Of a stretch of DNA of 64,000 nt, positions 41,412 through 55,421 are shown one piece after another. Position 1 is the stretch's first letter, and every line of letters begins with the position of its first letter. This DNA is from Myxococcota bacterium (GTDB lineage Bacteria; Myxococcota; JAJVIH01), in contig JAJVIH010000016.1 in the NCBI GenBank assembly GCA_022072125.1, positions 29,081 to 93,080 on the forward strand, in the 5' to 3' direction. The position numbers and the translations under genes were made by a program. The notes beneath the pieces were generated by a model. It ran no database searches and had not been told where the DNA came from. It saw only the letters and a list, made by a program, of their open reading frames with translations.

Positions 41412-44400
41412 TCAGTAGGTTCCAATTTCTCCATTCTTGCCGGTTTCGCCCTGTTCTCCGCCGGCGCCGCCCGCGCCTCCGCCGCCGGGAATGAGCTGGT
41501 TGTTCAACGTGGTGGGCTTGGAACTGCCGGCCTGGATAATGGCGAAGGAAGGACCGCCTCCGCCTCCGCCGCCATCACCGCCCTTGCCGCCCTTGCCGCC
41601 ATCTCCGCCGCGCCCGCCGGCGCCGCCGTCGTTGCCGCTGTAGCTGGTGCTGCCGCCGGCGCCGCCGGTTCCGGCCTTGGCGGATTCGCCGCCGCGGCTG
41701 CCATCGCCGCCGTCTCCGCCCTTGCCGGAGATGATCGTGGAGTATTCAATCTTCGGCGAGGAATTCCACAGGAAGAGCCCCGCGGAAGCGCCGCCGGGTT
41801 CGCCGCCCTTGCCGCCCACGCCCCCTGCTCCACCGCCTCCGCCGCCGCCGCCCGCTCCGCCATAATCGGCGCAGCACCAGCCCAGATCGCCATCGCATCC
41901 GCCGCCACCGCCGCCACCACCGCCTCCGCCGCCGCCCGGCTGGCCATCTTCGCCGTCTCCGCCCTTGCCGCCGGTCCACTGGCCGTTCACCACCGAGCCC
42001 AAGCCATTGCCCATGGCGCCCGGAACACCGTCCTTGCCATCCTTGCCGCGTGCTCCCAGGCCGCCGCCTCCGCCGCGGGAACCGCCGCTGCCCGCGCCGC
42101 CCGCGCACCCACCCGCTCCGTCAGGGCCGGAGCCGCTGTCCGGATTGCACGGCTGAGCGCCCGCGCCCGGCGTTCCGGCGTTGCCGCCGCCCTTCTTGTG
42201 ACCCGGCACGCCGCCGCTGCCGCCGGTATTGGCGCCGTTGCCGCCGCTGCCCACATTGGGACGGCTGCACGAAGCGCAGCCCAGGCTGCCAATCCCGCCG
42301 ATGCCCCATTTTTCGCCGCCCGATTCGCATTGTGGATTGCCGGGGTTGCCAGTCTGGCCAATGTTGGCGTTGGCGGGAACCGGATCACCCGGCTTGCCGT
42401 CGGCGCCGTCGCCCGCCTGGATGACCGCCTTGTTGATCAGCAGGAAATCCTTCGAATCGCCCACCGCCACGCAGAACGCCGCTTCGCCGGGGGTGAAGGC
42501 GGACTGGCACTGCAATCCCACGTGATCGAGCACGGTCAATTCGGTCAGCCCCTGAACGAACATGATTCGCGGTTTCGAGCTGATCAGCTTGACCTCGTGG
42601 GTCTGGGAGCGTTTCCATGCGGCCTGCTGGTTGTAACCGCCGTACAGTTTGATGCCGTTGGGCAGCGAGATCGGGTTTTTGATGTTGTAGACGCCCTGCG
42701 AGATGTACACCGACTTGCTCGGGATATTCCGCGCGGCGGCGATACCGGCCTCGATGGTCTTCTTGGGTTTGTCCATCGTTCCGGGGGAGCCGTCGCTGCC
42801 CGAGGCGGAAACGTAGATCGCCTGGATATTCTTCGGATCCCGGCTTGCGAGGCCATCCACCCCATCGCAGTTGGAATCTTCGTAATCGTTGTCGGGAACG
42901 TCGTCCGGGCCCACGTAGTCGCAGGCGTATTCACACCCATTGGCCGGGTCGCCATCCAGATCCACCTTGCCCTTGTCGCATCCGGTGCCTTCGCCAAACA
43001 GCTTGAGCACCGTGCGTCCCGATCCGAATTTGGCGTGGACGATCGTGACTTCCGCTTCCACCGCTCCCACCTTGGTGGGTTGCAGGATGGCGGTCAGCTT
43101 GAGCACGGTCTTGTTGCCCGCTTCATTGACCAGTTCCGCCGGGTAGATGGTCGGAATGCCGTTGACCACAATCGCCGGATCGGGTTTGGTCACGGAAATG
43201 CTGTCAATTTCGATGGTTCCGGTGCCCGCGTTCTGCACGTAGATTTCCTTGGGGGGCGATTTGCCGCCAATGGACACCTTGCCCAGGTCCACCGGCGCGG
43301 GCGGGGTGATCTGCAGCTTGGGCTCCGATCCGACGCCTTCCACGGGGACTTCCACCGCGTTGGGCGAAGCCGCCGTGAGAATGAGGATTTTGTTTTCCCT
43401 CAGCCCCGCCTGCTTCGGTTCGAAGCTGACCTTCATTTCGTAAGTCTGCCCCGGGTCCACGCGGGTGGGCGCGTTGATCAGCTTGAAGTCGTCGCTGGTG
43501 ACGGCGAGTTTGACCTCCTTCACCACCAGGGATTCATCCGGCGAGACGTTGGTCAGGCGCAGGCTCTTTTCCGACTTCTGCCCCATCAGCGTTTCCGGGA
43601 AATTCAGCTTGGAGGGGTCCACCACAAGGCCTGCCGGGGTGACGCCCGCCGCCGCGCTCAGGGTGATGGTGGTCGCGCCGTCGTCGGGTTGGCCGTTGTT
43701 GTCAATGTCGGTGTCGTTGGTCTTGACATCAATCACCGCGTCATGACGGCCTTTTTTCTGTGCGAGGAAATTGACCGTGACCTTCACCTCCTGGCCGGGG
43801 TTCAGGAAGATCGGAATCTTCGCGTTGGGGTTCACGCCCACCACGTCGAAAGTCAACTGGAATTGATCAAACGCCGTGCCCGCCGTCTGCCGGACCTTGA
43901 ACTCGTTGAGTCCCAGGATGCTGGTTCCATTGCCGTTGTTCTTGACCGTGAAGACCTGATTGACCGGCTTGTTCACGTCGGTGGCGCCGAAGGTGATGGA
44001 ATGGTTCGCCGGGCCATTGGCGGCGGGCCACACCACCGTCGCCGGAGAGGCGTTGTTCTGGACGATGTTGTAATCCACCTCTCCCTTGTAGGTGCTGGCC
44101 ATCGCCACGCTGATTTTGGGGGTCTTGGCGTTGGAGATGACCTCGATGGTCCCGGAATCCGGCTTTTCATCGTCGGGTGAATACACCACCTGGAACACCG
44201 TCACGTCGCCCGGCTCCAGGATGGCCGCGGGGACCGGGTTGGGATCCAGCGCGAACGCCTTGCTGGTGGTGGATTCAAACTTCACTTCCAGCAACTGCAC
44301 CTTGCTCTGGCCCACATTGGAAATGCGCACCTGTTTGGTGGATGAACTGCCGAAACTGACCGCGCCGAAATCCAGCACCTGCGGGCTCACCTCCAGCACG

Positions 44401-44930
44401 CCCTCCGGGTTGATTTCGATTGGAGTGCATTTGCCCGTCTGGACCACGCAACGCTCGATATCCGGCTTGCAGTCCTTGTCGGATTTGCAGCCGCTGCCCG
44501 GGAATTTGCATACGCCCGACACGCAGGCGCCGTCTGGAGCGCAATCCGCGTCGCCGCTGCACAGGACATTGCCCGAACCATCCACGTCGCGGCAGAAAGA
44601 GGCCACGCATTTCTGATCGGACCGGCACTCGCTGTCCGCCGAACAAGGCACGCCGGCCGCGCCCTGGCAAACGCCGCCTTCACAGGTCTGCCCAGCCGGG
44701 CAGTCCAGGTTGCCGGTGCAGGAGATGGGGCCATCCCCCGGCGCCTCGCAGGTTCCTTCCTTGCAGACCTCGCCTTCGCCGCAGTCGAGGTCCGCCTGGC
44801 AGTTTTTCTGCGTCTGGCGGGGAGTGGGTTTGCCAACGCCCGCGTCGAGAATGCCGCCCGCGTCGCCACATCCCGCAATTCCCAAGGCGATGACCGTCAG
44901 GGCTGAAAATACAATGGAACAGGTCTTCAT
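41412..44930 (-). CDS. Giant multidomain surface lipoprotein, 1172 aa: Cys-rich EGF-like repeats, Ig-like (PapD/ASH-like) beta domains, beta-helix-like segment, Gly-rich collagen-like C-terminus
   Basis: Start taken at MKTCSIVFSALTVIALGIAGC (lipobox); C-x-x-G-x-C repeats; C-terminal about 330 aa is more than 50% Gly with GKDGKDGVPG / GKPGDPVP triplets and G13 runs. Confidence 0.85.
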   Translation of the reverse strand: MKTCSIVFSALTVIALGIAGCGDAGGILDAGVGKPTPRQTQKNCQADLDCGEGEVCKEGTCEAPGDGPISCTGNLDCPAGQTCEGGVCQGAAGVPCSADSECRSDQKCVASFCRDVDGSGNVLCSGDADCAPDGACVSGVCKFPGSGCKSDKDCKPDIERCVVQTGKCTPIEINPEGVLEVSPQVLDFGAVSFGSSSTKQVRISNVGQSKVQLLEVKFESTTSKAFALDPNPVPAAILEPGDVTVFQVVYSPDDEKPDSGTIEVISNAKTPKISVAMASTYKGEVDYNIVQNNASPATVVWPAANGPANHSITFGATDVNKPVNQVFTVKNNGNGTSILGLNEFKVRQTAGTAFDQFQLTFDVVGVNPNAKIPIFLNPGQEVKVTVNFLAQKKGRHDAVIDVKTNDTDIDNNGQPDDGATTITLSAAAGVTPAGLVVDPSKLNFPETLMGQKSEKSLRLTNVSPDESLVVKEVKLAVTSDDFKLINAPTRVDPGQTYEMKVSFEPKQAGLRENKILILTAASPNAVEVPVEGVGSEPKLQITPPAPVDLGKVSIGGKSPPKEIYVQNAGTGTIEIDSISVTKPDPAIVVNGIPTIYPAELVNEAGNKTVLKLTAILQPTKVGAVEAEVTIVHAKFGSGRTVLKLFGEGTGCDKGKVDLDGDPANGCEYACDYVGPDDVPDNDYEDSNCDGVDGLASRDPKNIQAIYVSASGSDGSPGTMDKPKKTIEAGIAAARNIPSKSVYISQGVYNIKNPISLPNGIKLYGGYNQQAAWKRSQTHEVKLISSKPRIMFVQGLTELTVLDHVGLQCQSAFTPGEAAFCVAVGDSKDFLLINKAVIQAGDGADGKPGDPVPANANIGQTGNPGNPQCESGGEKWGIGGIGSLGCASCSRPNVGSGGNGANTGGSGGVPGHKKGGGNAGTPGAGAQPCNPDSGSGPDGAGGCAGGAGSGGSRGGGGGLGARGKDGKDGVPGAMGNGLGSVVNGQWTGGKGGDGEDGQPGGGGGGGGGGGGGCDGDLGWCCADYGGAGGGGGGGGAGGVGGKGGEPGGASAGLFLWNSSPKIEYSTIISGKGGDGGDGSRGGESAKAGTGGAGGSTSYSGNDGGAGGRGGDGGKGGKGGDGGGGGGGPSFAIIQAGSSKPTTLNNQLIPGGGGAGGAGGEQGETGKNGEIGTY

Positions 44931-45177
44931 GTACCGCACGGCGGACCTTTCGATATGACCAGGCCGGACTTCTCGCACCCCCCGGATGACAAAATCCCAG
45001 AATCGAGGTGAAGGGGATATGATATCCGCCACACCTGACTGGCGACCCTCATCACTATAGCCAAACCGGGGAAAGATTGCATCCCCCAGTTGACCGTCCT
45101 TGCGCGTCAAATATGACGCGGCGCGTTATTAATGACTGCCCCCCCTCCCGAAGCGGCCGGGTCACGCCCGGGTTTCA

Positions 45178-46526: not shown

Positions 46527-49500
46527 ATGCGCAAGAACCTGTTGCTTCCAGTCTGCTTCGGAATATTCATCGCCGCCATCCAGTCGTGTTCGGGATGCCG
46601 TGAAACCGGCGGAGCCCCGCGCGCGCTGCGCGAGGCTAGCACCCAACCGGTCGCCGCCGTCAAGGAAATCCGCGCCCTTGCGGCCGCTGACTGGGGCGCC
46701 GCGGTTGGCGGCTCCGATGGCGTGGTGGCGGGCGTTCCCGCAAACGGATCGGCGCCCTTCGAGTTGCGCGGGCACGCAGCGCCGGTGACCCGGTTGTGCT
46801 TCGCCGCGAATGGCGAGCGGCTGGTTTCACTGGATCAATCCGGCGCCGCCAAGGTCTGGAACATCACATCGAAATCATGGTTGCGGGACCTGGCGCAAAA
46901 GGCCCCGGCCGTCACCGCCATGGCCAGCGAAGACGGATGGGCGGCGGCTGGCGCGGCGACCGGCGATATCACCCTGTGGCGGCCCGGGCCCGGGGGCGCT
47001 CCGGAACGGATCGAGGGACTATCAGCAGGGTCGGCCGTGCGCGCGCTGGCGTTTTCGCCTCGCGCAAAGCTGCTCGCCGCGGGAACCGAGGACGGCGCGT
47101 TGCGCATCCTCGATGTGGAATCGGGGTCGTGGCGGCCCTCCGCGGCCGCCTCCGGACCCGCCATCGCCGCCGTGCGCTTCGTCGAGACAAACGGCGTGAC
47201 GCGGCTCGTGGCGGTGCGGCGCAATGGTGAGTTCGCCTGGGCCGCGCCGGACGCCACGGACTTTCCGTGGCGGTCCTCCGGCCTCGATAAATTGAGCGCC
47301 GCCGCCATCGGCGGGCGCGGTGAAATCGCCGTGGCCCGTGACAGCGATCTGCGCGTATTCTTTCCCTCCGCCAAAAACAGCGGTGACTGGGAGCCGTGGA
47401 CTCTGCCCGCCGCCATTCCCCACGCGGCCGGCATCAGCGCATTGCATGTCTCGGGAGATGGAAAAACCGTTCTCACGGGCGGGCGTGACGGTCTTGTGGG
47501 TGTTTGGGATTCCCGCGGCGACGAGGTGAAAATCGTCTTTCGTGATCACGGCAATGTTGTAAGCGCCCTCGCCATGGACCCCCAGGGCAAGGTGATCGCC
47601 AGCGCGTCGGCGGATGGACAGATGATCTTCTGGCGGCTCAAGGGCGAGTTGCTGATCCTCAAGGCGAAGGCGGCGGGACCGCTCGCCGCACTGACGTTCG
47701 CAGCGCCGGACCGGGTGATTTCCGGCGGCGCCAGCGGCGAGATCGCGGCGTGGGATGTCTCCCTGACCCTGCCCGAATTGTACATGCGCCGGTACGTGCC
47801 CAGCGACTACCAGTACGCCTGCGCCAGCGGCGGCCAAATCATCGCGGCGGGGGATGGCTCGCGCAATGTGTGGCTGTGGGACAAGGACAACAACCGCATT
47901 CGCGTCATGCTCAAGGGTCTGACGGGGGCGGTGACGGCGATGGCGCTCAATCAGGCCGGGACAAAACTGGCGCTCGCCACCGGAGACGGGAAGCTTTGGA
48001 CATTCAATCCGGGAGATGGACAGCAGTTGCGCGAGGCGCCGCTGGTCACGTTGTCCCAACATGCGTTGAGTTCGGCTTTGATCCACCGCCTGGCGGCGGC
48101 GGGAGACTGGGTGATCGCCGCCGGTCCGCGTCATGTATGGGTGTGGAACAGCGCCGCCTCTTCCGTGAACGTGGTGGAGTCTCCCGGGGCGGCGGGCGGG
48201 CCGGTGGACGTGGCGGTTTCCGGCGATTCATCCGCCGCCATCCTGCACGACCGGCACGTGCGGCTTCTGGACCCGGCCAAACCGCCGCAAATACAAACCA
48301 TTGTATTGCCCAGGAGCGGCGCCAGCCGCATCGCGCTGGCGCCCGGCGGCGGCTTTGTCGTGGGGTTCGGCGATGGCGCGGTCGAACGCTACAACGCCAA
48401 AGGGATGGCGGCGGGCGGTTGCAAGGGGCTGACTGGTCCCGTGTTGCGCTTGGCGGTTTCCGCCACGGCCATCGCCGCCTCAACCGCCGGCGACGAGATG
48501 CGCTGGCCGGTCACGTGCGGCGCGGGCAAGCTGGCGCAGGCGCCCAGCGACATGGCGGCCGCGTGCCGTTATCAGAATGGACATTTGGTCGAGACCTCTC
48601 CGGCGCTGCTCGATTCCTTGCGCACCGAGGAGCCGCAACTGTTTGAACTGGTCGAGCCGCGGCGCCGGGAATTCACCGCGGCCGCGGCCGGGTCCAGCGG
48701 CATGGGCGGACAAATGGTGCTTGTCGCGTCGGCAGCCGGCGAGGTTTCCGTGCGCGACGCCGCCGCCGGCCGCGTGATCAACGCCTGGCCGCATTCCTCT
48801 CCGCGCACCGCCGCTTTGTCCGTGCCGCGCGCGCCCATCTTCGTGGTGGGATCGGAAGACGGCGCGTTGCAGGTGCTCGACGCCAGCACCGGCAAGGATC
48901 GCGTGTTCACCCAGACGGGGCGCGGCGGCGTGCGCGCCATGGCGGCCGGGCCCGATCAGTTCGCCGTGCTCTACGAAAAGGGCGTGGCCCTGCGCGCCTT
49001 CGCCACCCTCGCCGAAACCGCGTGGGCGCCGCTCGAAGGCGTGAACGCGATCAGCGTGGCGGCCGGCAAGGACATGGTTTGGGTGGGAGATGACAAGGGC
49101 GCCATCCACCCCATTGGGGTCAATGGAGAAAAATCCCGTCCCGTGCAGGCGGGAAACGCGCCCATCCGCGCCCTCGCCGCCGGGAAGGATGGCGTATTGT
49201 GGGCGGGCGACAACGCCGGTTTCCTGTGGCGGATTCCCGCCAGCGGCGCGCCGGAAAAATTCCCGCTGGATTCCACGGCCGTCACCGGGCTTCAGTTGGT
49301 CTGGAATGATCAATGGCTGATCGCGCTGACTTCCAGCGGCAAACTGCTGGCGTGGGACATCGCCCAATCGGTCATCCGGTTTGAAAAAACCGGCCTGGGC
49401 GGTCACAGCGATGTGCTGGCGGTCAGCGCGGACAACGCCTGGGTCATCAACGCCGGGCAGACGGGAGCGCAGGTCTGGCGGCTGAGCCGCGGCGAATTTC

Positions 49501-50090
49501 TTGCTTCATTGAAGGAGAGCGCGCCCATCTTCGCCGGGCTGGCCTGCCATCCCGCCCAGCCCGTCGCCTGGGTGGTCACCTCGCGCGATGAACTGTGGGA
49601 ATATCAACTGGATAGCGGTCAGGCCGGTGTCAACAAGAGTTTTTCCGGGGCGATACTGCGGCGCAACAAGGAAGAAGAGGAAGCCGCCTGGTCAGTGAGC
49701 ATCAACGGGGCCGTCATACCGGTTGACAGGGATTCCATGTCCGGGATCGGGGAGCGCAAACAGACCCGTATGCGGGCCGGCATGGGGGACGTGATCACAA
49801 CCATTCACCAAAAGGGCGATAGCTGGGTCTGGTCCCACCCCGCGCTTCCGGAGGAAGGCCTGAAGGTGTTTCCCGCGGGCGCACGGCTGTTGGCCTATGA
49901 CTGCGGTGGAAAGGATGCCTGCACCGCCGTGGCCACGGATCGGGTGGTGTGGCTGAAGGCGGCGCCCCAGGCGTCGTCCGTGACGAGACCGTTGCCCCGT
50001 CCCGCCATCCTGGCCCGGATTCATGGCGACCGGCTTTTCGCCGCCGGGGCGCCCAATATCGTGACGGTTTATCCGTTGCAGGCGGATTGA
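46527..50090 (+). CDS. Giant WD40/beta-propeller repeat lipoprotein, 1187 aa
   Basis: Lipoprotein signal peptide MRKNLLLPVCFGIFIAAIQSC; repeated WD-like ...GHxxxVxxLAFSPxGxxLAxGxxDGxLRIWD patterns throughout. Confidence 0.85.
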   Translation: MRKNLLLPVCFGIFIAAIQSCSGCRETGGAPRALREASTQPVAAVKEIRALAAADWGAAVGGSDGVVAGVPANGSAPFELRGHAAPVTRLCFAANGERLVSLDQSGAAKVWNITSKSWLRDLAQKAPAVTAMASEDGWAAAGAATGDITLWRPGPGGAPERIEGLSAGSAVRALAFSPRAKLLAAGTEDGALRILDVESGSWRPSAAASGPAIAAVRFVETNGVTRLVAVRRNGEFAWAAPDATDFPWRSSGLDKLSAAAIGGRGEIAVARDSDLRVFFPSAKNSGDWEPWTLPAAIPHAAGISALHVSGDGKTVLTGGRDGLVGVWDSRGDEVKIVFRDHGNVVSALAMDPQGKVIASASADGQMIFWRLKGELLILKAKAAGPLAALTFAAPDRVISGGASGEIAAWDVSLTLPELYMRRYVPSDYQYACASGGQIIAAGDGSRNVWLWDKDNNRIRVMLKGLTGAVTAMALNQAGTKLALATGDGKLWTFNPGDGQQLREAPLVTLSQHALSSALIHRLAAAGDWVIAAGPRHVWVWNSAASSVNVVESPGAAGGPVDVAVSGDSSAAILHDRHVRLLDPAKPPQIQTIVLPRSGASRIALAPGGGFVVGFGDGAVERYNAKGMAAGGCKGLTGPVLRLAVSATAIAASTAGDEMRWPVTCGAGKLAQAPSDMAAACRYQNGHLVETSPALLDSLRTEEPQLFELVEPRRREFTAAAAGSSGMGGQMVLVASAAGEVSVRDAAAGRVINAWPHSSPRTAALSVPRAPIFVVGSEDGALQVLDASTGKDRVFTQTGRGGVRAMAAGPDQFAVLYEKGVALRAFATLAETAWAPLEGVNAISVAAGKDMVWVGDDKGAIHPIGVNGEKSRPVQAGNAPIRALAAGKDGVLWAGDNAGFLWRIPASGAPEKFPLDSTAVTGLQLVWNDQWLIALTSSGKLLAWDIAQSVIRFEKTGLGGHSDVLAVSADNAWVINAGQTGAQVWRLSRGEFLASLKESAPIFAGLACHPAQPVAWVVTSRDELWEYQLDSGQAGVNKSFSGAILRRNKEEEEAAWSVSINGAVIPVDRDSMSGIGERKQTRMRAGMGDVITTIHQKGDSWVWSHPALPEEGLKVFPAGARLLAYDCGGKDACTAVATDRVVWLKAAPQASSVTRPLPRPAILARIHGDRLFAAGAPNIVTVYPLQAD

Positions 50091-50258: not shown

Positions 50259-51443
50259 ATGCGTGACCCGCTCATCATCGGCTCCCGGGGGAGCGATTTG
50301 GCGTTATGGCAGGCGCGGAGCGTGGCCTCGGCGCTGCAATCGCAACTGGGCCTGCGCGCCGGATTGCAGATTATCAAAACCCAGGGCGATCAGATTGATC
50401 ACCTTCCGCTCAACAAACTCGAAGGCAAGGGATTCTTCACCAAGGAACTGGAGGAAGCCCTGCTCGCGGGCCGCGTGGATATCGCCGTCCATTCGCTGAA
50501 GGATTTGCCCGTGGAACAGCCGCCCGGCCTGGTCATCGCGGCGATTCCGGAACGGCACGATCCCGGCGAACTGCTGCTGTTCCGGCCCGATGTGTTTGAT
50601 CCCGCCAATCCATGGCTGCCCATCCGCGCGGGATCGCGGGTGGCCACTTCATCGCCGCGCCGCGAGGAGCAGTTGAAGGAAATGGGATTCGCCTGCACGG
50701 GCATGCGGGGCAATGTTCCCACGCGTATCCGCAAGCTGCGGGACGGCGCCGCGGACGCCCTGTTGCTGGCCGTCGCCGGCGTGGAGCGGCTGGGGCTGAA
50801 CTTGTGCGGGCTGGGCGCGGCCAACGCCAGCGCAGGCCCCGGTTCCGTTTCCGGCGGCGTGATACCGGCGCCGGGGCAAGGCGCCCTGGCCATCCAGATC
50901 CGTCAAAGCGACGGAGCTCTGTTCAAGGCGCTGCAAGGGCTGGATCACATGGAAACCCGTTTGTGCGTGACCGCGGAGCGGCTCTTGTTGTCGCGCCTGG
51001 GCGGCGGATGTCACCTTCCGCTGGGTGCGCGGATTCGCCCTGGCGCCGGGGCATGGACCGCGCAGGCCGCCGTGTACACGGCGGGGCTTTCAGGCCGTTG
51101 CGCCTTCACCACGAACGCCAACTGGCCGCGGCGCGCGGAAGAGGCCGGGGTGGACCGCGCCGCGGCGGAGCTGGCGGATGAAATGGAACACCAGTTGCGG
51201 AACAAGGCCGGACCGCTTTCCGCGCCGGACCCCGCCAGTTCGCGTCAGACCGTCCTGATGGCGGGAGAGTCCCTGCCGGCGGAAGAGGTGTTCCGCCGCT
51301 TTCACCAGGGCGCCTGCGTGGTGTGGCGCGCCTCGGTTGATCCCTGGCCTTTTGGCGAGGCGTTCTTCGATGAGGCCCTGGCGGCGGACGCGCAGGCGGC
51401 GGATATCATCCGCGCCCATGCCCGGCGGGTGCGGGTGGCGTGA
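50259..51443 (+). CDS. hemC: Hydroxymethylbilane synthase (porphobilinogen deaminase) with an about 80-aa C-terminal extension
   Basis: IGSRGSDLALWQA...GNVPTRIRKL...LSRLGGGCHLPLGA HemC core; 394 aa versus a usual length near 310. Confidence 0.88.
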   Translation: MRDPLIIGSRGSDLALWQARSVASALQSQLGLRAGLQIIKTQGDQIDHLPLNKLEGKGFFTKELEEALLAGRVDIAVHSLKDLPVEQPPGLVIAAIPERHDPGELLLFRPDVFDPANPWLPIRAGSRVATSSPRREEQLKEMGFACTGMRGNVPTRIRKLRDGAADALLLAVAGVERLGLNLCGLGAANASAGPGSVSGGVIPAPGQGALAIQIRQSDGALFKALQGLDHMETRLCVTAERLLLSRLGGGCHLPLGARIRPGAGAWTAQAAVYTAGLSGRCAFTTNANWPRRAEEAGVDRAAAELADEMEHQLRNKAGPLSAPDPASSRQTVLMAGESLPAEEVFRRFHQGACVVWRASVDPWPFGEAFFDEALAADAQAADIIRAHARRVRVA

Positions 51444-51519: not shown

Positions 51520-51700
51520 CCATTAGGTTGGTTTTCACGCCCTGACATGTCGTCAGGACGTGGGAGGAAGCCGGTGCGAATCCGGCGCTGACCCGCAACC
51601 GTGAGTTCTGTTTCCGACAGAACAAGCCGGGAACTCCTTCACTGCAACTCCCTCGTGGTCTGGGGCAGGCAGAATCCGCATTCAGCGCCGCATGGCCGTG
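51520..51700 (+). ncRNA. Cobalamin (B12) riboswitch candidate
   Basis: Core GGGAGGAAGCCGGTGCGAATCCGGCGCTGACCCGCAACCGTGAG matches the consensus AGGGAA..GGTG.AA.TCC..GC.G.CCCGC.AC.GT.A; B12-box-like TTCACTG and GGGGCAGG downstream; in the 5' leader of the 51785 gene. Confidence 0.6.
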
Positions 51701-51784
51701 CCGTCAGGCCGGCCGGCGCCATCCGGTTTCTCTCCACAAACACGATGGGGTTTCTCACGCGACCCTTCTCTGGAGGAAGCCGAG

Positions 51785-52816
51785 ATGACCCATCCCAAGT
51801 CCGTTCATTCCATTTCCCTTGCCGTGCTGCTGGCGCTTTCCTGCTGGCTGGCCGGCTGTTCCGGCGACGCCGCGTCTTCCGATGGCGGATCAAACGCCGG
51901 CGGCGCCGGCCCCAAGGACGCCTCGCCGCCGCCGGATGCGGGCCCCGCCGATGGCGCCTTATCTGACAGCGCCCCGGCGGACGCCGCTCCAGGCGATGTG
52001 GCTGCAACTGACACGGCGCCTGGCGACGCCCAGCCGGCGGATGCGGGCGCGCCAGATGCGAATCCAGTGGACGCCGGCCCCGCGGATACGGCGCCCGCCG
52101 ATGCGCAGCCCACCGACACCCAGCCCGGCGATGGCGGTCCGGCGACGGCCCCGGGGCTGGCGATTGCGGGCGTTTACGCCAACAGTTTCGGCGGCTACGA
52201 GGAAATCACCAGCGCCCTGTGGAACGATACGCCCATCGTCGAGTTCGATAACAACAAGCGCGTGGTCTATACCCGGAATCCAGCGGATGCGAAGTTCAGC
52301 CCGGGCAAATTCAACAAGATCGTATTCACGGTTCCGGGCGGCGCATCGTTCCATTACTGCTTCGCGGACTTTGGCCTTGACTCGCTGGAGGCGGCGAAGG
52401 CGTCATCCAAGGCCGTGGACGAAAGCGATCCGGACAAGAAAGGCTGCGGCGGATTCTCCTGGACCAAATTGACCGCCACGGATCCGATTGAAATCGCCGG
52501 AACCTGGTCCAGCAATTTCGGCGGCGAGGAGATCATCCGCAGCATCCGCTGGGGCAAGGCGTCCATCAAACTCTTCGATAACGGGTCCAACACCGCCTAC
52601 ACGCAGAATCCGGAAGACGCCCCGGCCGGAGCCAGGAAATTCAGCAAGCTGGTCTGGACCGAACCGGTGGGCGGCGTTTTCCACTACTGCACGGTGGATT
52701 TCAACCTGGACACCCTCGCCGCGGCGCAGGCTTCGGCCAAAACCGCCGATCCATCCAACCCTGAAAAGGGAGGCTGCGGCGGGTTCTCCTGGACCAAACT
52801 CAACAGGAAAAACTGA
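51785..52816 (+). CDS. Lipoprotein with two tandem ~100-aa repeats of an unrecognised domain
   Basis: ATG with GGAGGA RBS; lipobox LAGC; PADA-rich linker; repeats IAGVYANSFGG...FHYCFADFGLDSLEAAKAS...KKGCGGFSWTKL and IAGTWSSNFGG...FHYCTVDFNLDTLAAAQAS...KGGCGGFSWTKL. Confidence 0.78.
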   Translation: MTHPKSVHSISLAVLLALSCWLAGCSGDAASSDGGSNAGGAGPKDASPPPDAGPADGALSDSAPADAAPGDVAATDTAPGDAQPADAGAPDANPVDAGPADTAPADAQPTDTQPGDGGPATAPGLAIAGVYANSFGGYEEITSALWNDTPIVEFDNNKRVVYTRNPADAKFSPGKFNKIVFTVPGGASFHYCFADFGLDSLEAAKASSKAVDESDPDKKGCGGFSWTKLTATDPIEIAGTWSSNFGGEEIIRSIRWGKASIKLFDNGSNTAYTQNPEDAPAGARKFSKLVWTEPVGGVFHYCTVDFNLDTLAAAQASAKTADPSNPEKGGCGGFSWTKLNRKN

Positions 52817-53580
52817 TGCGCCATCTGTATTTCTGCGCCGCGGCCCTGTGGCTGGCGGCCTGCGGGGAAAACATCATCCCAACCGTCCACTCCACCCCCG
52901 ATGCATCCATGGCGGATGCATCGGGGCCGTCCGGTGATGCGGGTTCCGCGGACGCCGCGGTTTCCGGCGGCGATGCTTCCGCCGGGTCTGGCGGGGAGGC
53001 GGACGCCGGCGCCACCCCCGCGCGCAAGGCCAGTCCCCACGCGGGGCGGGTGGCCGGATACAAGCCCGGCGAGGGAGCGGGCTTTGGCCAGGACAAAATG
53101 CCGGACATCGTGCTGGGGCCGCCGCAGGGCGCCGGACCCGAAGCCGGCAGCCTGCATGTCCTCTCCCTCGGCAAAAATGGTCATATCGTTCTTGAATTCG
53201 TGGATATGGTGATGGTGGATGGCCCGGGACCCGACCTGCTGGTCTTTGAAAACGCCTTTCCGGCCTATCAGGAGACGGGCGTGGTGGCCGTCAGCGATGA
53301 TGGCCGGAACTGGTCCGAATGGCCTTGCGCCGCAACGGATAAGGAGAACCGCTTCCCGGGCTGCGCGGGGGTGAACCCGGTGCTGAGTTCGCCGGACAAC
53401 GGCGTTCCGGCGAACGATCCCCGGCAATCCGGCGGGGACGCCTTTGATCTGGCGGAATTGGGTGTGAAGCGGGCGCGTTTTGTGCGCATCCGGGACAGCG
53501 GATACAACAGCTACGAGGGAATCAGCGGCGGCTTCGATCTGGACGCCGTGGCCATCATCAACGGCGAGCCGGTGAAATGA
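52816..53580 (+). CDS. Hypothetical lipoprotein (beta-rich)
   Basis: Lipobox LAAC; Asp/Ala/Gly-rich linker; 1-nt overlap with the upstream gene. Confidence 0.78.
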   Translation: MRHLYFCAAALWLAACGENIIPTVHSTPDASMADASGPSGDAGSADAAVSGGDASAGSGGEADAGATPARKASPHAGRVAGYKPGEGAGFGQDKMPDIVLGPPQGAGPEAGSLHVLSLGKNGHIVLEFVDMVMVDGPGPDLLVFENAFPAYQETGVVAVSDDGRNWSEWPCAATDKENRFPGCAGVNPVLSSPDNGVPANDPRQSGGDAFDLAELGVKRARFVRIRDSGYNSYEGISGGFDLDAVAIINGEPVK

Positions 53581-54053
53581 CCCGCCGGGAATGGCTGATC
53601 CAAACCGGCGCCATGGCGGCTTCGGCCTGCGCGGGAGGATGCGCGGCCGGTGGGCCGGGAACTGGCGGGGTTGCGGATGCAGGCCAGGCCTTCGCGGCGG
53701 CGGAAGCCTGCGGCGATCTTCCTCCGCCGGACAGCGGTTGGCACGCCATCCCGCTGGCGGAAATTCCCGGGCTGGCGAGCCAGGGGGTGGCGCGGGTGCG
53801 CGCCCGCGAAGCCCTGCTGCAGGTGTGGGTGGTGCGGGAGTCATCCGCCTGCCACCGGGCGGTGTGGGCGATTTGCACGCACGGGGCCTGTGAACTGGAC
53901 TGGAAACCGGAAGAACGCTGGCTGGAATGCCCATGCCATGGCTCCCGGTTCAACACACTGGGCGCCATCGTGCGCGGGCCCGCGACCCAACCGGTACGTA
54001 CGCTGCCAGCCCAGGTGCGCGAGGGTTATTTGTATATCAAACGCCCGTTCTGA
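53577..54053 (+). CDS. Tat-exported Rieske [2Fe-2S] domain protein, 158 aa
   Basis: Twin-arginine signal MTRREWLIQTGAMAASA; Rieske box I CTHGAC and box II CPCHGS; ATGA overlap with the upstream gene. Confidence 0.85.
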   Translation: MTRREWLIQTGAMAASACAGGCAAGGPGTGGVADAGQAFAAAEACGDLPPPDSGWHAIPLAEIPGLASQGVARVRAREALLQVWVVRESSACHRAVWAICTHGACELDWKPEERWLECPCHGSRFNTLGAIVRGPATQPVRTLPAQVREGYLYIKRPF

Positions 54054-54068
54054 CGGCGGAGGACTCGA

Positions 54069-55109
54069 TCACTTCACGTACACGGGGAAGCGGATTTCAC
54101 GGCCGTTGCCATTGAAGGCGGGAAATTTCCACTGGTTGACCGCGGCCACCAGACATTGACGGAACGCCTCGTCGGGAGAGTCCGGCTCCGCCACCGCCAC
54201 CGATCCCGGCGACCCGCTGGGCTGCAATACGAACTGAATCACCACGCGCGAGGTGGCGTTGTCCTCGTTGCGGTCGCGGTCGGCCTCGAAACAGGGCAGC
54301 AGCCTGGGGATATTCCGGCGAATCCGCGAATAAATATCCGTGGCGGAGACCTGTCCTTCGTCCACATCCATGTCTTCGCCTCCGCCGCCGCCAGGGGGCG
54401 CCGTTTCGCCCGGACCGGCGGGAGCGGGGGGCGGCGGCGGCGCGGTTTCTCCGGAGGGCGCATTTTGTTTGGGCTGGGGAGCGGCCGCCGCCAGCGCTTT
54501 CCCGGCTTTGGGCGGTTTGGCGGCCTTTGGCGCGCCAACGGCGGCGGCGACAAATTCATCCATATTGCCAATCGAAATGATCGGCGGCGGACGCTTGATC
54601 CACGCCTTGTTGTCGCCCACGGACGGCGGCTTCGCCAATGCGGCCGCCGGCGGCTGCGCGCCCGTAGTACCCGTTGGAGCGGTCTTGGCCGGGGCCTGAG
54701 CCGTTGGAGCCGCGGCGGCGGGGGATTTCTTGCGCATCCGCATCCACCCCCAGCCGGCCACCCCCACCGCGCCAAGGAGGAGAACCGCCACGGCGCCCGC
54801 CAGCAGGTTGCGGCGCGACCGGGCTGTTTCCGCTTCCAGGCGTTGCTGGTGCAGGGCCCGTTCGCGGGCCGCCTTGCCCGCCCATTCCACGAATTCAGGG
54901 ATTTCCCGGAGCGGCCGCCAGTGCGTGATCTCCGCTGGGGTCGCCTCGCAGGAATCGTCGAGTTCCCCGCGGTAGAGGCGATCCACAATCACCTGGGCGG
55001 GGGCCGGACCCTGTACGGTTCCGCCCGATCGAAACATCCATTCGCCGGGAATATTGACCTGGGGGGCCTTGGGATGGGGGGAACTGCGCGCCATGACACC
55101 GATCTTCAT
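54069..55109 (-). CDS. Protein with N-terminal DUF4339 (GYF-like) domain, TM helix, Pro/Ala-rich linker and TonB C-terminal-like domain
   Basis: GEWMFRSGGTVQGPAPAQVIVDRLYRGELDDSCEATPAEITHWRPLREIPEF; TM LLAGAVAVLLLGAVGVAGW; C-terminal ...VVIQFVLQPSGSPGSVAVAE...EIRFPVYVK. Confidence 0.78.
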   Translation of the reverse strand: MKIGVMARSSPHPKAPQVNIPGEWMFRSGGTVQGPAPAQVIVDRLYRGELDDSCEATPAEITHWRPLREIPEFVEWAGKAARERALHQQRLEAETARSRRNLLAGAVAVLLLGAVGVAGWGWMRMRKKSPAAAAPTAQAPAKTAPTGTTGAQPPAAALAKPPSVGDNKAWIKRPPPIISIGNMDEFVAAAVGAPKAAKPPKAGKALAAAAPQPKQNAPSGETAPPPPPAPAGPGETAPPGGGGGEDMDVDEGQVSATDIYSRIRRNIPRLLPCFEADRDRNEDNATSRVVIQFVLQPSGSPGSVAVAEPDSPDEAFRQCLVAAVNQWKFPAFNGNGREIRFPVYVK

Positions 55110-55421
55110 AACCCGCACCCGCCTCCACCCGCAATGGAAATGCACAGCCGCCCGTCGCGGGGTCCTGCTTTTGCGCGGCATGGCGGTTGATGGCGTGAGG
55201 CGGGCTTTTCCGGCCCATCCGGCTGGCGCCGCGGGAAAACTCCCGGGTCTGCATCCCTGACCTGCATGAAGGCTGTTCTGGAACCGGGGTCCGGCGTGGA
55301 AAGCGCCTTACCGTGCTTTCCACGCCTGCCGGAAAGCATAAGATGAATCCCGGTCCTGGCGGTCAGACGCCGGCGGCCGGGGCGGGAAACCCGCCGCGAA
55401 CGGTTGTCCGGGCGGATTCCG

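Follow-up and report, generated by a model that had tools for sequence, protein, structure and literature searches.

A cobalamin riboswitch-linked lipoprotein with tandem beta modules in Myxococcota and its possible role in cobamide acquisition

The gene under study lies in a window of 64 kb (64,000 nucleotides (nt) of contig JAJVIH010000016.1 from a Myxococcota bacterium; positions are counted from its first letter) and encodes a lipoprotein of 343 amino acids (aa) that carries two copies of one module behind a cobalamin riboswitch. Among 78 species loci, 68 have such a riboswitch 5' of the module gene in the same orientation (Rfam and covariance model combined), and this linkage is strong evidence for B12-dependent regulation. 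Genes repressed by cobalamin riboswitches typically function in B12 transport, in B12 or cobalt supply, or as B12-independent isozymes. The operon headed by the module gene likely serves cobamide acquisition, and among these functions transport is preferred because exported, non-enzymatic lipoproteins accompany BtuB-like receptors and a transcobalamin-type domain. Overall, the observations are on balance best explained by a B12-repressed cobamide-capture operon, in which the module would be the capture or hand-off unit.

The match to the cobalamin riboswitch family RF00174 covers the full model (1-189), and the aptamer ends 130 nt before the ATG of the module gene, on the same strand (Table 1). 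The Shine-Dalgarno (SD) sequence GGAGGA (51773-51778) is located 7 nt 5' of this ATG and is paired with 51720-51735 in the minimum-free-energy fold of 51640-51800 (z = -2.1 vs shuffles). No intrinsic terminator was found in the leader. Translational control via SD sequestration is suggested, because the SD is buried in a hairpin of the predicted fold and the leader has no terminator.

The 78 loci are species representatives, obtained by a pattern scan with one genome per species. Rfam alone identifies a directly upstream, same-strand riboswitch in nine of the first ten loci, the tenth lacking full sequence. A covariance model built from the Rfam-positive loci finds the element in 62-63 loci, with almost no other matches in the ~1 Mb searched. 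This model (R1) is too narrow and misses the strong Rfam riboswitches of L043, L065, and L078 (loci are cited by L numbers); the counts given here pool both methods, Rfam adding L036, L064, L043, L065, and L078. Eight of the ten loci outside the 68 have too little upstream sequence, owing to a contig end or a cut first gene, and the riboswitch was not found in two assessable loci, L020 and L077. The gap between the aptamer and the first module has a median of 293 nt. In the loci of 18 species, the riboswitch precedes only the module gene, the genes farther downstream being unrelated or unannotatable; regulation therefore targets the module gene itself. The riboswitch, from which a preliminary description of the gene had drawn its idea of a ligand, is a feature of the family at large.

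The open reading frame (ORF) of the module gene (51785-52816, + strand, 343 codons) has a translated product identical to an NCBI 'hypothetical protein' of a Myxococcota metagenome-assembled genome (MAG), encoded on a 372-kb contig. Judged from its lipobox, which is kept in essentially all homologues, the protein is lipid-anchored via Cys25. The low-complexity tether that follows differs in length from homologue to homologue. Two internal repeats after a Pro/Ala/Asp-rich tether had been claimed in the preliminary description, and they are borne out: the repeats align ungapped with 55 of 107 residues identical (51%; BLASTP E-value (E) 3e-39), no shuffle out of 10,000 has 55 identities (the top shuffle has 20), and the DNA identity of the two repeats is 61%. 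The NSFGG/SNFGG, FHYC, and GCGGFSWTKL blocks named in that description are each found twice.

The first homology search for the protein returned 62 sequences, nearly all of them lipoproteins of Myxococcota or 'Deltaproteobacteria' MAGs, and no Pfam domains were found among them. A hidden Markov model (HMM) built from both repeats identifies one to four full-length, back-to-back module copies in 61 of these 62. In an exhaustive profile search of 1.84 billion cluster representatives (50%-identity clusters), 1,512 proteins match the module at E <= 1e-3 and 1,269 at E <= 1e-10, with at most five module copies per protein. The repeat is accordingly a genuine domain, as the earlier description had supposed, and its family comprises ~1,500 clusters with one to five copies, chiefly in Myxococcota, Bradymonadia, and Spirochaetota. 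In the 78 loci, one copy per ORF is found in 33 cases, two in 29, three in 17, and four in one. Extra-long family members have no added known domains by Pfam, their extra length being a fused partner domain.

Two Lujinxingia loci (L027 6998-7561; L030 6866-7366) contain a second, more divergent single-module gene 5' of the riboswitch of the main gene. Since these second genes lie upstream of the riboswitch, the family has paralogues that may escape B12 control.

Residues G129, C192, A204, G220, and C221 are invariant over 140 module copies. Conservation exceeds 90% at W146, Q164, P173, V180, W181, T182, G197, D212, P216, G222, F224, W226, and T227, and is also strong at D155, N156, D168, K178, and Y191. 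Conserved Trp, Tyr, Phe, Asp, Asn, and Gln occupy consecutive strand positions across all 140 copies. The Cys pair (HYC...GCGG) had been read as a disulfide or ligand site. Both cysteines are unchanged in 140/140 copies, and the two cysteines of an exported protein normally form a disulfide. Because these two invariant cysteines sit in an exported domain, a structural disulfide is a better fit for the pair than a ligand site. At the His of FHYC the copies vary, with Tyr in its place in 56% of them, and no conserved His is present anywhere in the module. The ligand-site half of the proposal is thus not supported, a His/Cys metal site at FHYC is rejected as unlikely, and metal as the ligand of the module is left without specific support.

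The AlphaFold2 (AF2) model of the two-module region, computed from a 40-sequence alignment, has a mean predicted local distance difference test score (pLDDT) of 97 and a predicted template modelling score (pTM) of 0.87. Each modelled module consists of seven beta strands and one short helix, and a 20-residue loop with the motif D-x-S-D-P...G-C-G-G-F runs into the last strand. The domain had been introduced as unrecognised. Pfam finds nothing in the 343-aa protein at E <= 1, the PDB sequences, searched with the single protein as well as with profiles, give no match for the module, and Foldseek comparison of the module model with the PDB gives no significant fold match; a confident match to a characterised domain of unrelated function did not appear. 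The module can still be called unrecognised in that it has no characterised relative, but it does have a single named one, the distant NCBIfam family NF047669 'LIC13354 family exoprotein' (E 3e-17).

The best Foldseek matches of the module, which are not significant, are lipocalin-type barrels, the weak top match being Tp0751, a Treponema lipoprotein with a lipocalin fold. Propeller, BtuH, and DUF4465 jelly roll structures are absent from the 50 best matches listed. The module is like the calycin/lipocalin small barrels (Treponema pallidum Tp0751, avidins) in its size of ~110 aa, its up-and-down beta meander, and its one short helix. Lipocalins bear a G-x-W signature on their first strand, and the first strand of the module has such a motif (G129 invariant, W/Y131).

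The second gene of the operon is translationally coupled to the module gene and encodes a lipoprotein, here called the partner, of the LIC13355 type. The partner has >3,400 homologues, named 'cell surface protein' at NCBI; in 51 loci it neighbours the module gene or is fused to it. Fusions join one to four modules with the partner in one polypeptide and occur in six loci (L031, L043, L053, L055, L058, L063) and in at least nine further cluster representatives (P0061, P0268, P0297, P0300, P0307, P0327, P0354, P0360, P0399); one fusion has the order module-partner-module. The AF2 model of the partner is mostly above pLDDT 90 from residue ~70 to the C-terminus, where it forms a discoidin/CBM32-like sandwich. 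In a Foldseek search with this model, BtuGH 8blw_B (E 6e-4) and BtuH2 7biz (E 7e-4) rank 2-3 of 350,000 chains. 8BLW chain B and 7BIZ are the two PDB entries with the Bacteroides BtuH B12-binding domain (PMC13616437). The resemblance of the modelled partner to BtuH is a lead.

In Corallococcus coralloides CP172866 (L081 2216-11557), three cobalamin riboswitches are present within 10 kb. The genes behind one of them encode a TonB-dependent receptor and a 535-aa Stig1/NHL-like protein. The other two each precede a pair consisting of a Cys-rich lipoprotein of 433 or 495 aa, which has no Pfam match, and a partner. These 433/495-aa lipoproteins occupy the slot of the tandem-module protein and are unrelated to it.

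The third gene, also translationally coupled, encodes a Rieske protein that has a twin-arginine motif (TRREWL), typical of its predicted twin-arginine translocation (TAT) export, and the cluster motif CTHGAC...CPCHGS. It is found in the same position in ~10 other species loci, including L035, L046, L054, L059, L067, L070, L071, and L072. All-against-all clustering of ORFs in the 78 loci reveals no conserved neighbour besides the partner and the Rieske protein; the remaining large ORF clusters are antisense-frame artefacts of high-GC sequence.

In other lineages, B12-uptake genes are found beside the module. Same-operon TonB-dependent receptors are present in L053, L058, L063, L022, L052, L083, and L084, and those of L022 and L052 lie 3' of the module gene. 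In the Spirochaetales MAGs L053, L058, and L063, the riboswitch is followed by the TonB-dependent receptor, a 428-aa protein, and a module-partner fusion; the top NCBIfam match of this receptor is the TonB-B12 model TIGR01779 (E 7e-56, below the model cutoff). In the Leptospiraceae loci L083 and L084, the order is an adenosylcobalamin (AdoCbl)-like element, a 184-187-aa single-module LIC13354-like protein, a LIC_13355 lipoprotein, DUF4430, DUF6580, a TonB-dependent receptor, and an EamA transporter. The AdoCbl-like element (L083 299-374; L084 5759-5834) scores below the Rfam gathering threshold. The small genes for DUF4430 and DUF6580, the latter a membrane protein (L083 1986-2997; L084 7455-8466), may encode additional components of B12 uptake. 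In transcobalamin-type B12 binders, DUF4430 forms the C-terminal domain (PMC4350170).

The named relative of the module comes from Leptospira. The 343-aa protein matches NF047669 with 63.4 bits (E 3.2e-17), in two stretches that fall on profile positions 84-162 of 174, and the part of the LIC13354 model to which the module is homologous is its C-terminal half. The membership cutoff of NF047669 is 130 bits, and the protein is thus homologous to the curated family and outside it. The Leptospira pair has the same gene order, module protein then LIC13355-type lipoprotein, and in L084 the neighbour of the LIC13354-like gene scores 220 bits vs a cutoff of 120 for NF033170 ('LIC_13355 family lipoprotein'). 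The Leptospiraceae proteins have one module in ~184 aa, whereas two modules on a 98-aa tether are found here. The LIC13354-LIC13355 pair is a distant counterpart of the module-partner pair, because the second protein matches NF033170 weakly (E 6e-5) beside an NF047669-like module.

In the literature LIC13355 is treated as an outer-membrane adhesin, and in vitro its recombinant form bound to laminin, plasminogen, and endothelial cells (PMC11891782). In leptospires adapted to the host, LIC13354 and LIC13355 are each induced ~3.7-fold (PMC3953431). Studies of Leptospira list two to three cobalamin riboswitches without naming the module-partner operon (PMC3493377, PMC7567364). A literature search found no B12 link for the module domain, the 'cell surface protein' family, or LIC13354/LIC13355. 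The 3' half of the Leptospiraceae element (AACUGUGA, hairpin, AAGCCAGAUCUUCCCCG) resembles rh4854, the third RF00174 match in L. interrogans (Manilae chromosome I 4,078,407-4,078,514; PMC7567364 supplement). As a lead, rh4854 lies at a plausible chromosomal position for LIC13354 and is a candidate neighbour of this gene. The sequence comparison suggests that LIC13354/LIC13355 may be riboswitch-controlled in the pathogen too.

The proposed operon consists of three genes, the tandem-module lipoprotein first, then the LIC13355-type lipoprotein, and then the TAT-exported Rieske protein. Sufficient intracellular B12 would switch it off, and it therefore most likely acquires cobamides from outside. 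The module protein would be exported to the outer membrane or cell surface and anchored there at Cys25, presenting on a ~100-residue flexible tether two all-beta modules that are probably disulfide-stapled. Each module may act as a corrinoid capture or hand-off unit, and several modules in line (one to five in relatives) would give more capacity. The module protein would work with its discoidin/BtuH-like partner, and the cobamide would finally be fed to a TonB-dependent B12 receptor encoded elsewhere in the genome.

Direct binding of a corrinoid by the module is a real possibility, which is put forward only tentatively. Known B12-binding lipoproteins contact the corrin via residue types like the conserved Trp, Tyr, Phe, Asp, Asn, and Gln of the module (PMC13616437). 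The preliminary description had proposed a ligand-binding module, possibly for a corrinoid. What stands of this is the corrinoid context, i.e., the riboswitch in 68/78 loci and the B12-uptake genes alongside elsewhere; the Cys/His ligand site is not supported. That description does not mention the main context, namely the coupled LIC13355-type partner and the Rieske gene.

Several points weigh against a cobamide-capture role. By Pfam, PDB sequence, and Foldseek searches the module has no detectable similarity to any known B12 binder, whether BtuG/K propellers, BtuH, the BtuJ/DUF4465 jelly roll, BtuF, or transcobalamin. The likeness of the partner to BtuH is weak (E ~7e-4, amid many discoidin/CBM32 matches), and PDB sequence searches, which yield only noise for the partner, give it no support. 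Neither a TonB-dependent receptor nor btuFCD genes are present within the 64-kb window. The Rieske companion is without precedent in B12 uptake, no described B12-uptake system with a periplasmic Rieske protein being known to us. Finally, the modules are N-terminal to the partner in fusions, at the place where BtuH2 has non-binding PKD spacers, and could be a stalk.

This last point leads to an explanation that also assumes a B12 operon and is unlikely, though it deserves serious weight: the modules would be a rigid stalk, a scaffold, or a docking adaptor, serving either the partner as the putative true binder or the coupling of partner and receptor. They would then play the role of the PKD and immunoglobulin-like (Ig) domains in BtuH2 and BtuK, and the fusion order, n modules then partner, mirrors PKD-PKD-PKD-BtuH (PMC13616437). 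A copy number of one to five is usual for spacers. The partner family is far larger than the module family (>3,400 matches vs ~1,500 clusters) and pairs with an unrelated first gene in Corallococcus, which suggests that the partner is the core component. The module is nevertheless more likely a capture or hand-off unit, because it is regulated apart from the partner, being the sole riboswitch-controlled gene of its locus in 18 species, because an anchor and a long flexible tether are part of the module protein itself, which needs no partner for positioning, and because every copy has the same conserved polar and aromatic residues, on both strand faces, which is unusual for spacers.

Two explanations that depart further from cobamide capture have been considered. 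Uptake of cobalt or another metal for B12 synthesis, via the Cys pair and acidic residues of the module, would place metal supply under riboswitch control, as for CbiMNQO and CbtAB; cobalamin riboswitches do regulate cobalt transporters, e.g., cbtAB in Leptospira licerasiae (PMC3493377), two cysteines and several Asp are invariant in the module, and hemC is directly upstream of the operon. This is very improbable, given that the FHYC His varies and the module has no conserved His, that the cysteine pair of an exported protein is normally a disulfide, that the co-occurring genes are of corrinoid type (BtuB-like receptors, DUF4430) and not cobalt transporters, and that hemC is upstream of the riboswitch and is not a conserved neighbour in other loci. 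It is scarcely credible that the protein, as a lipoprotein for adhesion to hosts or surfaces, has nothing to do with B12 and that its riboswitch link is functionally meaningless. The in vitro binding of laminin, plasminogen, and endothelial cells by LIC_13355 (PMC11891782), the ~3.7-fold induction of LIC13354/LIC13355 in host-adapted leptospires (PMC3953431), and the weak top fold match of the module to Tp0751 speak for adhesion. The carriers, however, are mostly free-living Myxococcota/Bradymonadia MAGs without an animal host, the riboswitch is conserved in 68/78 species, and in vitro stickiness of refolded lipoproteins is weak functional evidence.

Table 1. Features of the riboswitch-linked operon and its leader in the window
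Feature	Positions	Strand	Basis or remark
Cobalamin riboswitch aptamer RF00174 in the operon 5' leader	51521..51654	+	Rfam 39.9 bits vs gathering 31.5; B12 box GCUGACCCGCAACCGUGAG
Probable expression platform; SD inside a long hairpin	51655..51784	+	Minimum-free-energy fold
Signal peptide and lipobox L22-A23-G24-C25 of the 343-aa lipoprotein	51785..51859	+	Read from sequence
Low-complexity Ala/Asp/Pro/Gly tether, 98 aa (aa 26-123)	51860..52153	+	Composition 28% Ala, 17% Asp, 17% Pro, 15% Gly
Module copy 1, aa 124-230; seven beta strands, short helix, invariant Cys192/Cys221	52154..52474	+	HMM domain score 141 bits; AF2 pLDDT 97; conservation over 140 copies
Module copy 2, aa 234-340; 51% identity with copy 1	52484..52804	+	BLASTP, HMM, AF2, shuffle test
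Partner, 254-aa lipoprotein, 'cell surface protein'/LIC_13355 type, discoidin-like beta sandwich	52816..53580	+	Start overlaps upstream stop (TGATG); NF033170 E 6e-5
Rieske [2Fe-2S] protein, TAT-exported, 158 aa, translationally coupled	53577..54053	+	Pfam Rieske E 2e-11; ATGA start/stop overlap with partner

The hemC gene (hydroxymethylbilane synthase; 50259-51443, +, 394 aa) is located 5' of the riboswitch, and its membership in the regulon is rejected in view of this position and of its lack of conservation in other loci. Its product has a C-terminal extension of ~90 aa past the end of the 293-position model TIGR00212, without a Pfam or NCBIfam match. Just upstream of hemC, a 1,187-aa lipoprotein (46527-50090, +; lipobox-like AIQSC) consists largely of WD40 beta-propeller repeats. 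Convergent with the operon is a gene (54069-55181, -) for a 370-aa protein with an N-terminal GYF_2-like domain, a Pro/Ala-rich linker, and a C-terminal TonB_C domain; by tblastn, a similar protein occurs in one related locus only, L027. A 1,232-aa protein (41412-45110, -) with multiple HYDIN/ASH/DUF1573-type Ig-like domains is probably a large surface protein. Genes for 2-oxoacid dehydrogenase are found near the operon, and the scanned neighbours (WD40 lipoprotein, 2-oxoacid dehydrogenase genes, Ig-repeat protein) have no relation to B12.

A more far-reaching interpretation, which must be regarded as rather doubtful at present, is that the module constitutes a new structural class of extracellular cobamide binder besides the BtuG/K propellers, BtuH, and BtuJ. 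In Myxococcota, Bradymonadia, and Spirochaetota, with LIC13354/LIC13355 among the cases, one to five such beads on a flexible lipid-anchored tether would make up a multivalent 'fishing line' for B12. The coupled periplasmic Rieske protein would add a redox step in some lineages, e.g., reductive release or ligand exchange of the corrinoid, and no B12 uptake system is known to have such a step. New in this would be a module unrelated to known binders and without a solved relative, its occurrence in different phyla, and its Rieske companion; the logic of riboswitch-controlled accessory B12-capture lipoproteins is already known. To our knowledge, such accessory lipoproteins have so far been described structurally and biochemically almost only in gut Bacteroidota. 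The present loci point to an unrelated equivalent made of two or sometimes three proteins and widespread in predatory and soil- or sediment-dwelling Myxococcota and Bradymonadia and in Spirochaetota. A testable function is thereby proposed for ~1,500 'hypothetical protein' clusters and >3,400 members of the 'cell surface protein' family. LIC13354 and LIC13355, studied as adhesins and vaccine candidates, may belong to B12 acquisition, and B12 acquisition is tied to leptospiral growth in the host. The reason for coupling a periplasmic Rieske protein to such a system is a new question that these loci raise.

Among known B12-associated proteins, the transcobalamin-type DUF4430 (PF14478) is a small exported domain (PMC4350170) that shares an operon with the module gene in Leptospiraceae; in sequence it is unrelated to the module, and this window lacks it. 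In function, the nearest analogues are BtuG, BtuH, BtuJ (DUF4465), and BtuK of Bacteroides, which capture cobamides and relay them to BtuB (PMC13616437, PMC12751083, PMC10404256, PMC8941943). Unlike these lipoproteins, the module is not a propeller, a DUF4465 jelly roll, or a BtuH domain by sequence or fold search, it belongs to other phyla, its locus has no receptor in this window, and a Rieske protein is present. The Btu lipoproteins are often found beside a BtuB-type receptor, are modular and sometimes fused, and comprise several non-homologous classes per system (PMC13616437, PMC12751083). What the protein described here has in common with them is a lipoprotein signal (LAGC, Cys25) and an operon linked to a cobalamin riboswitch.

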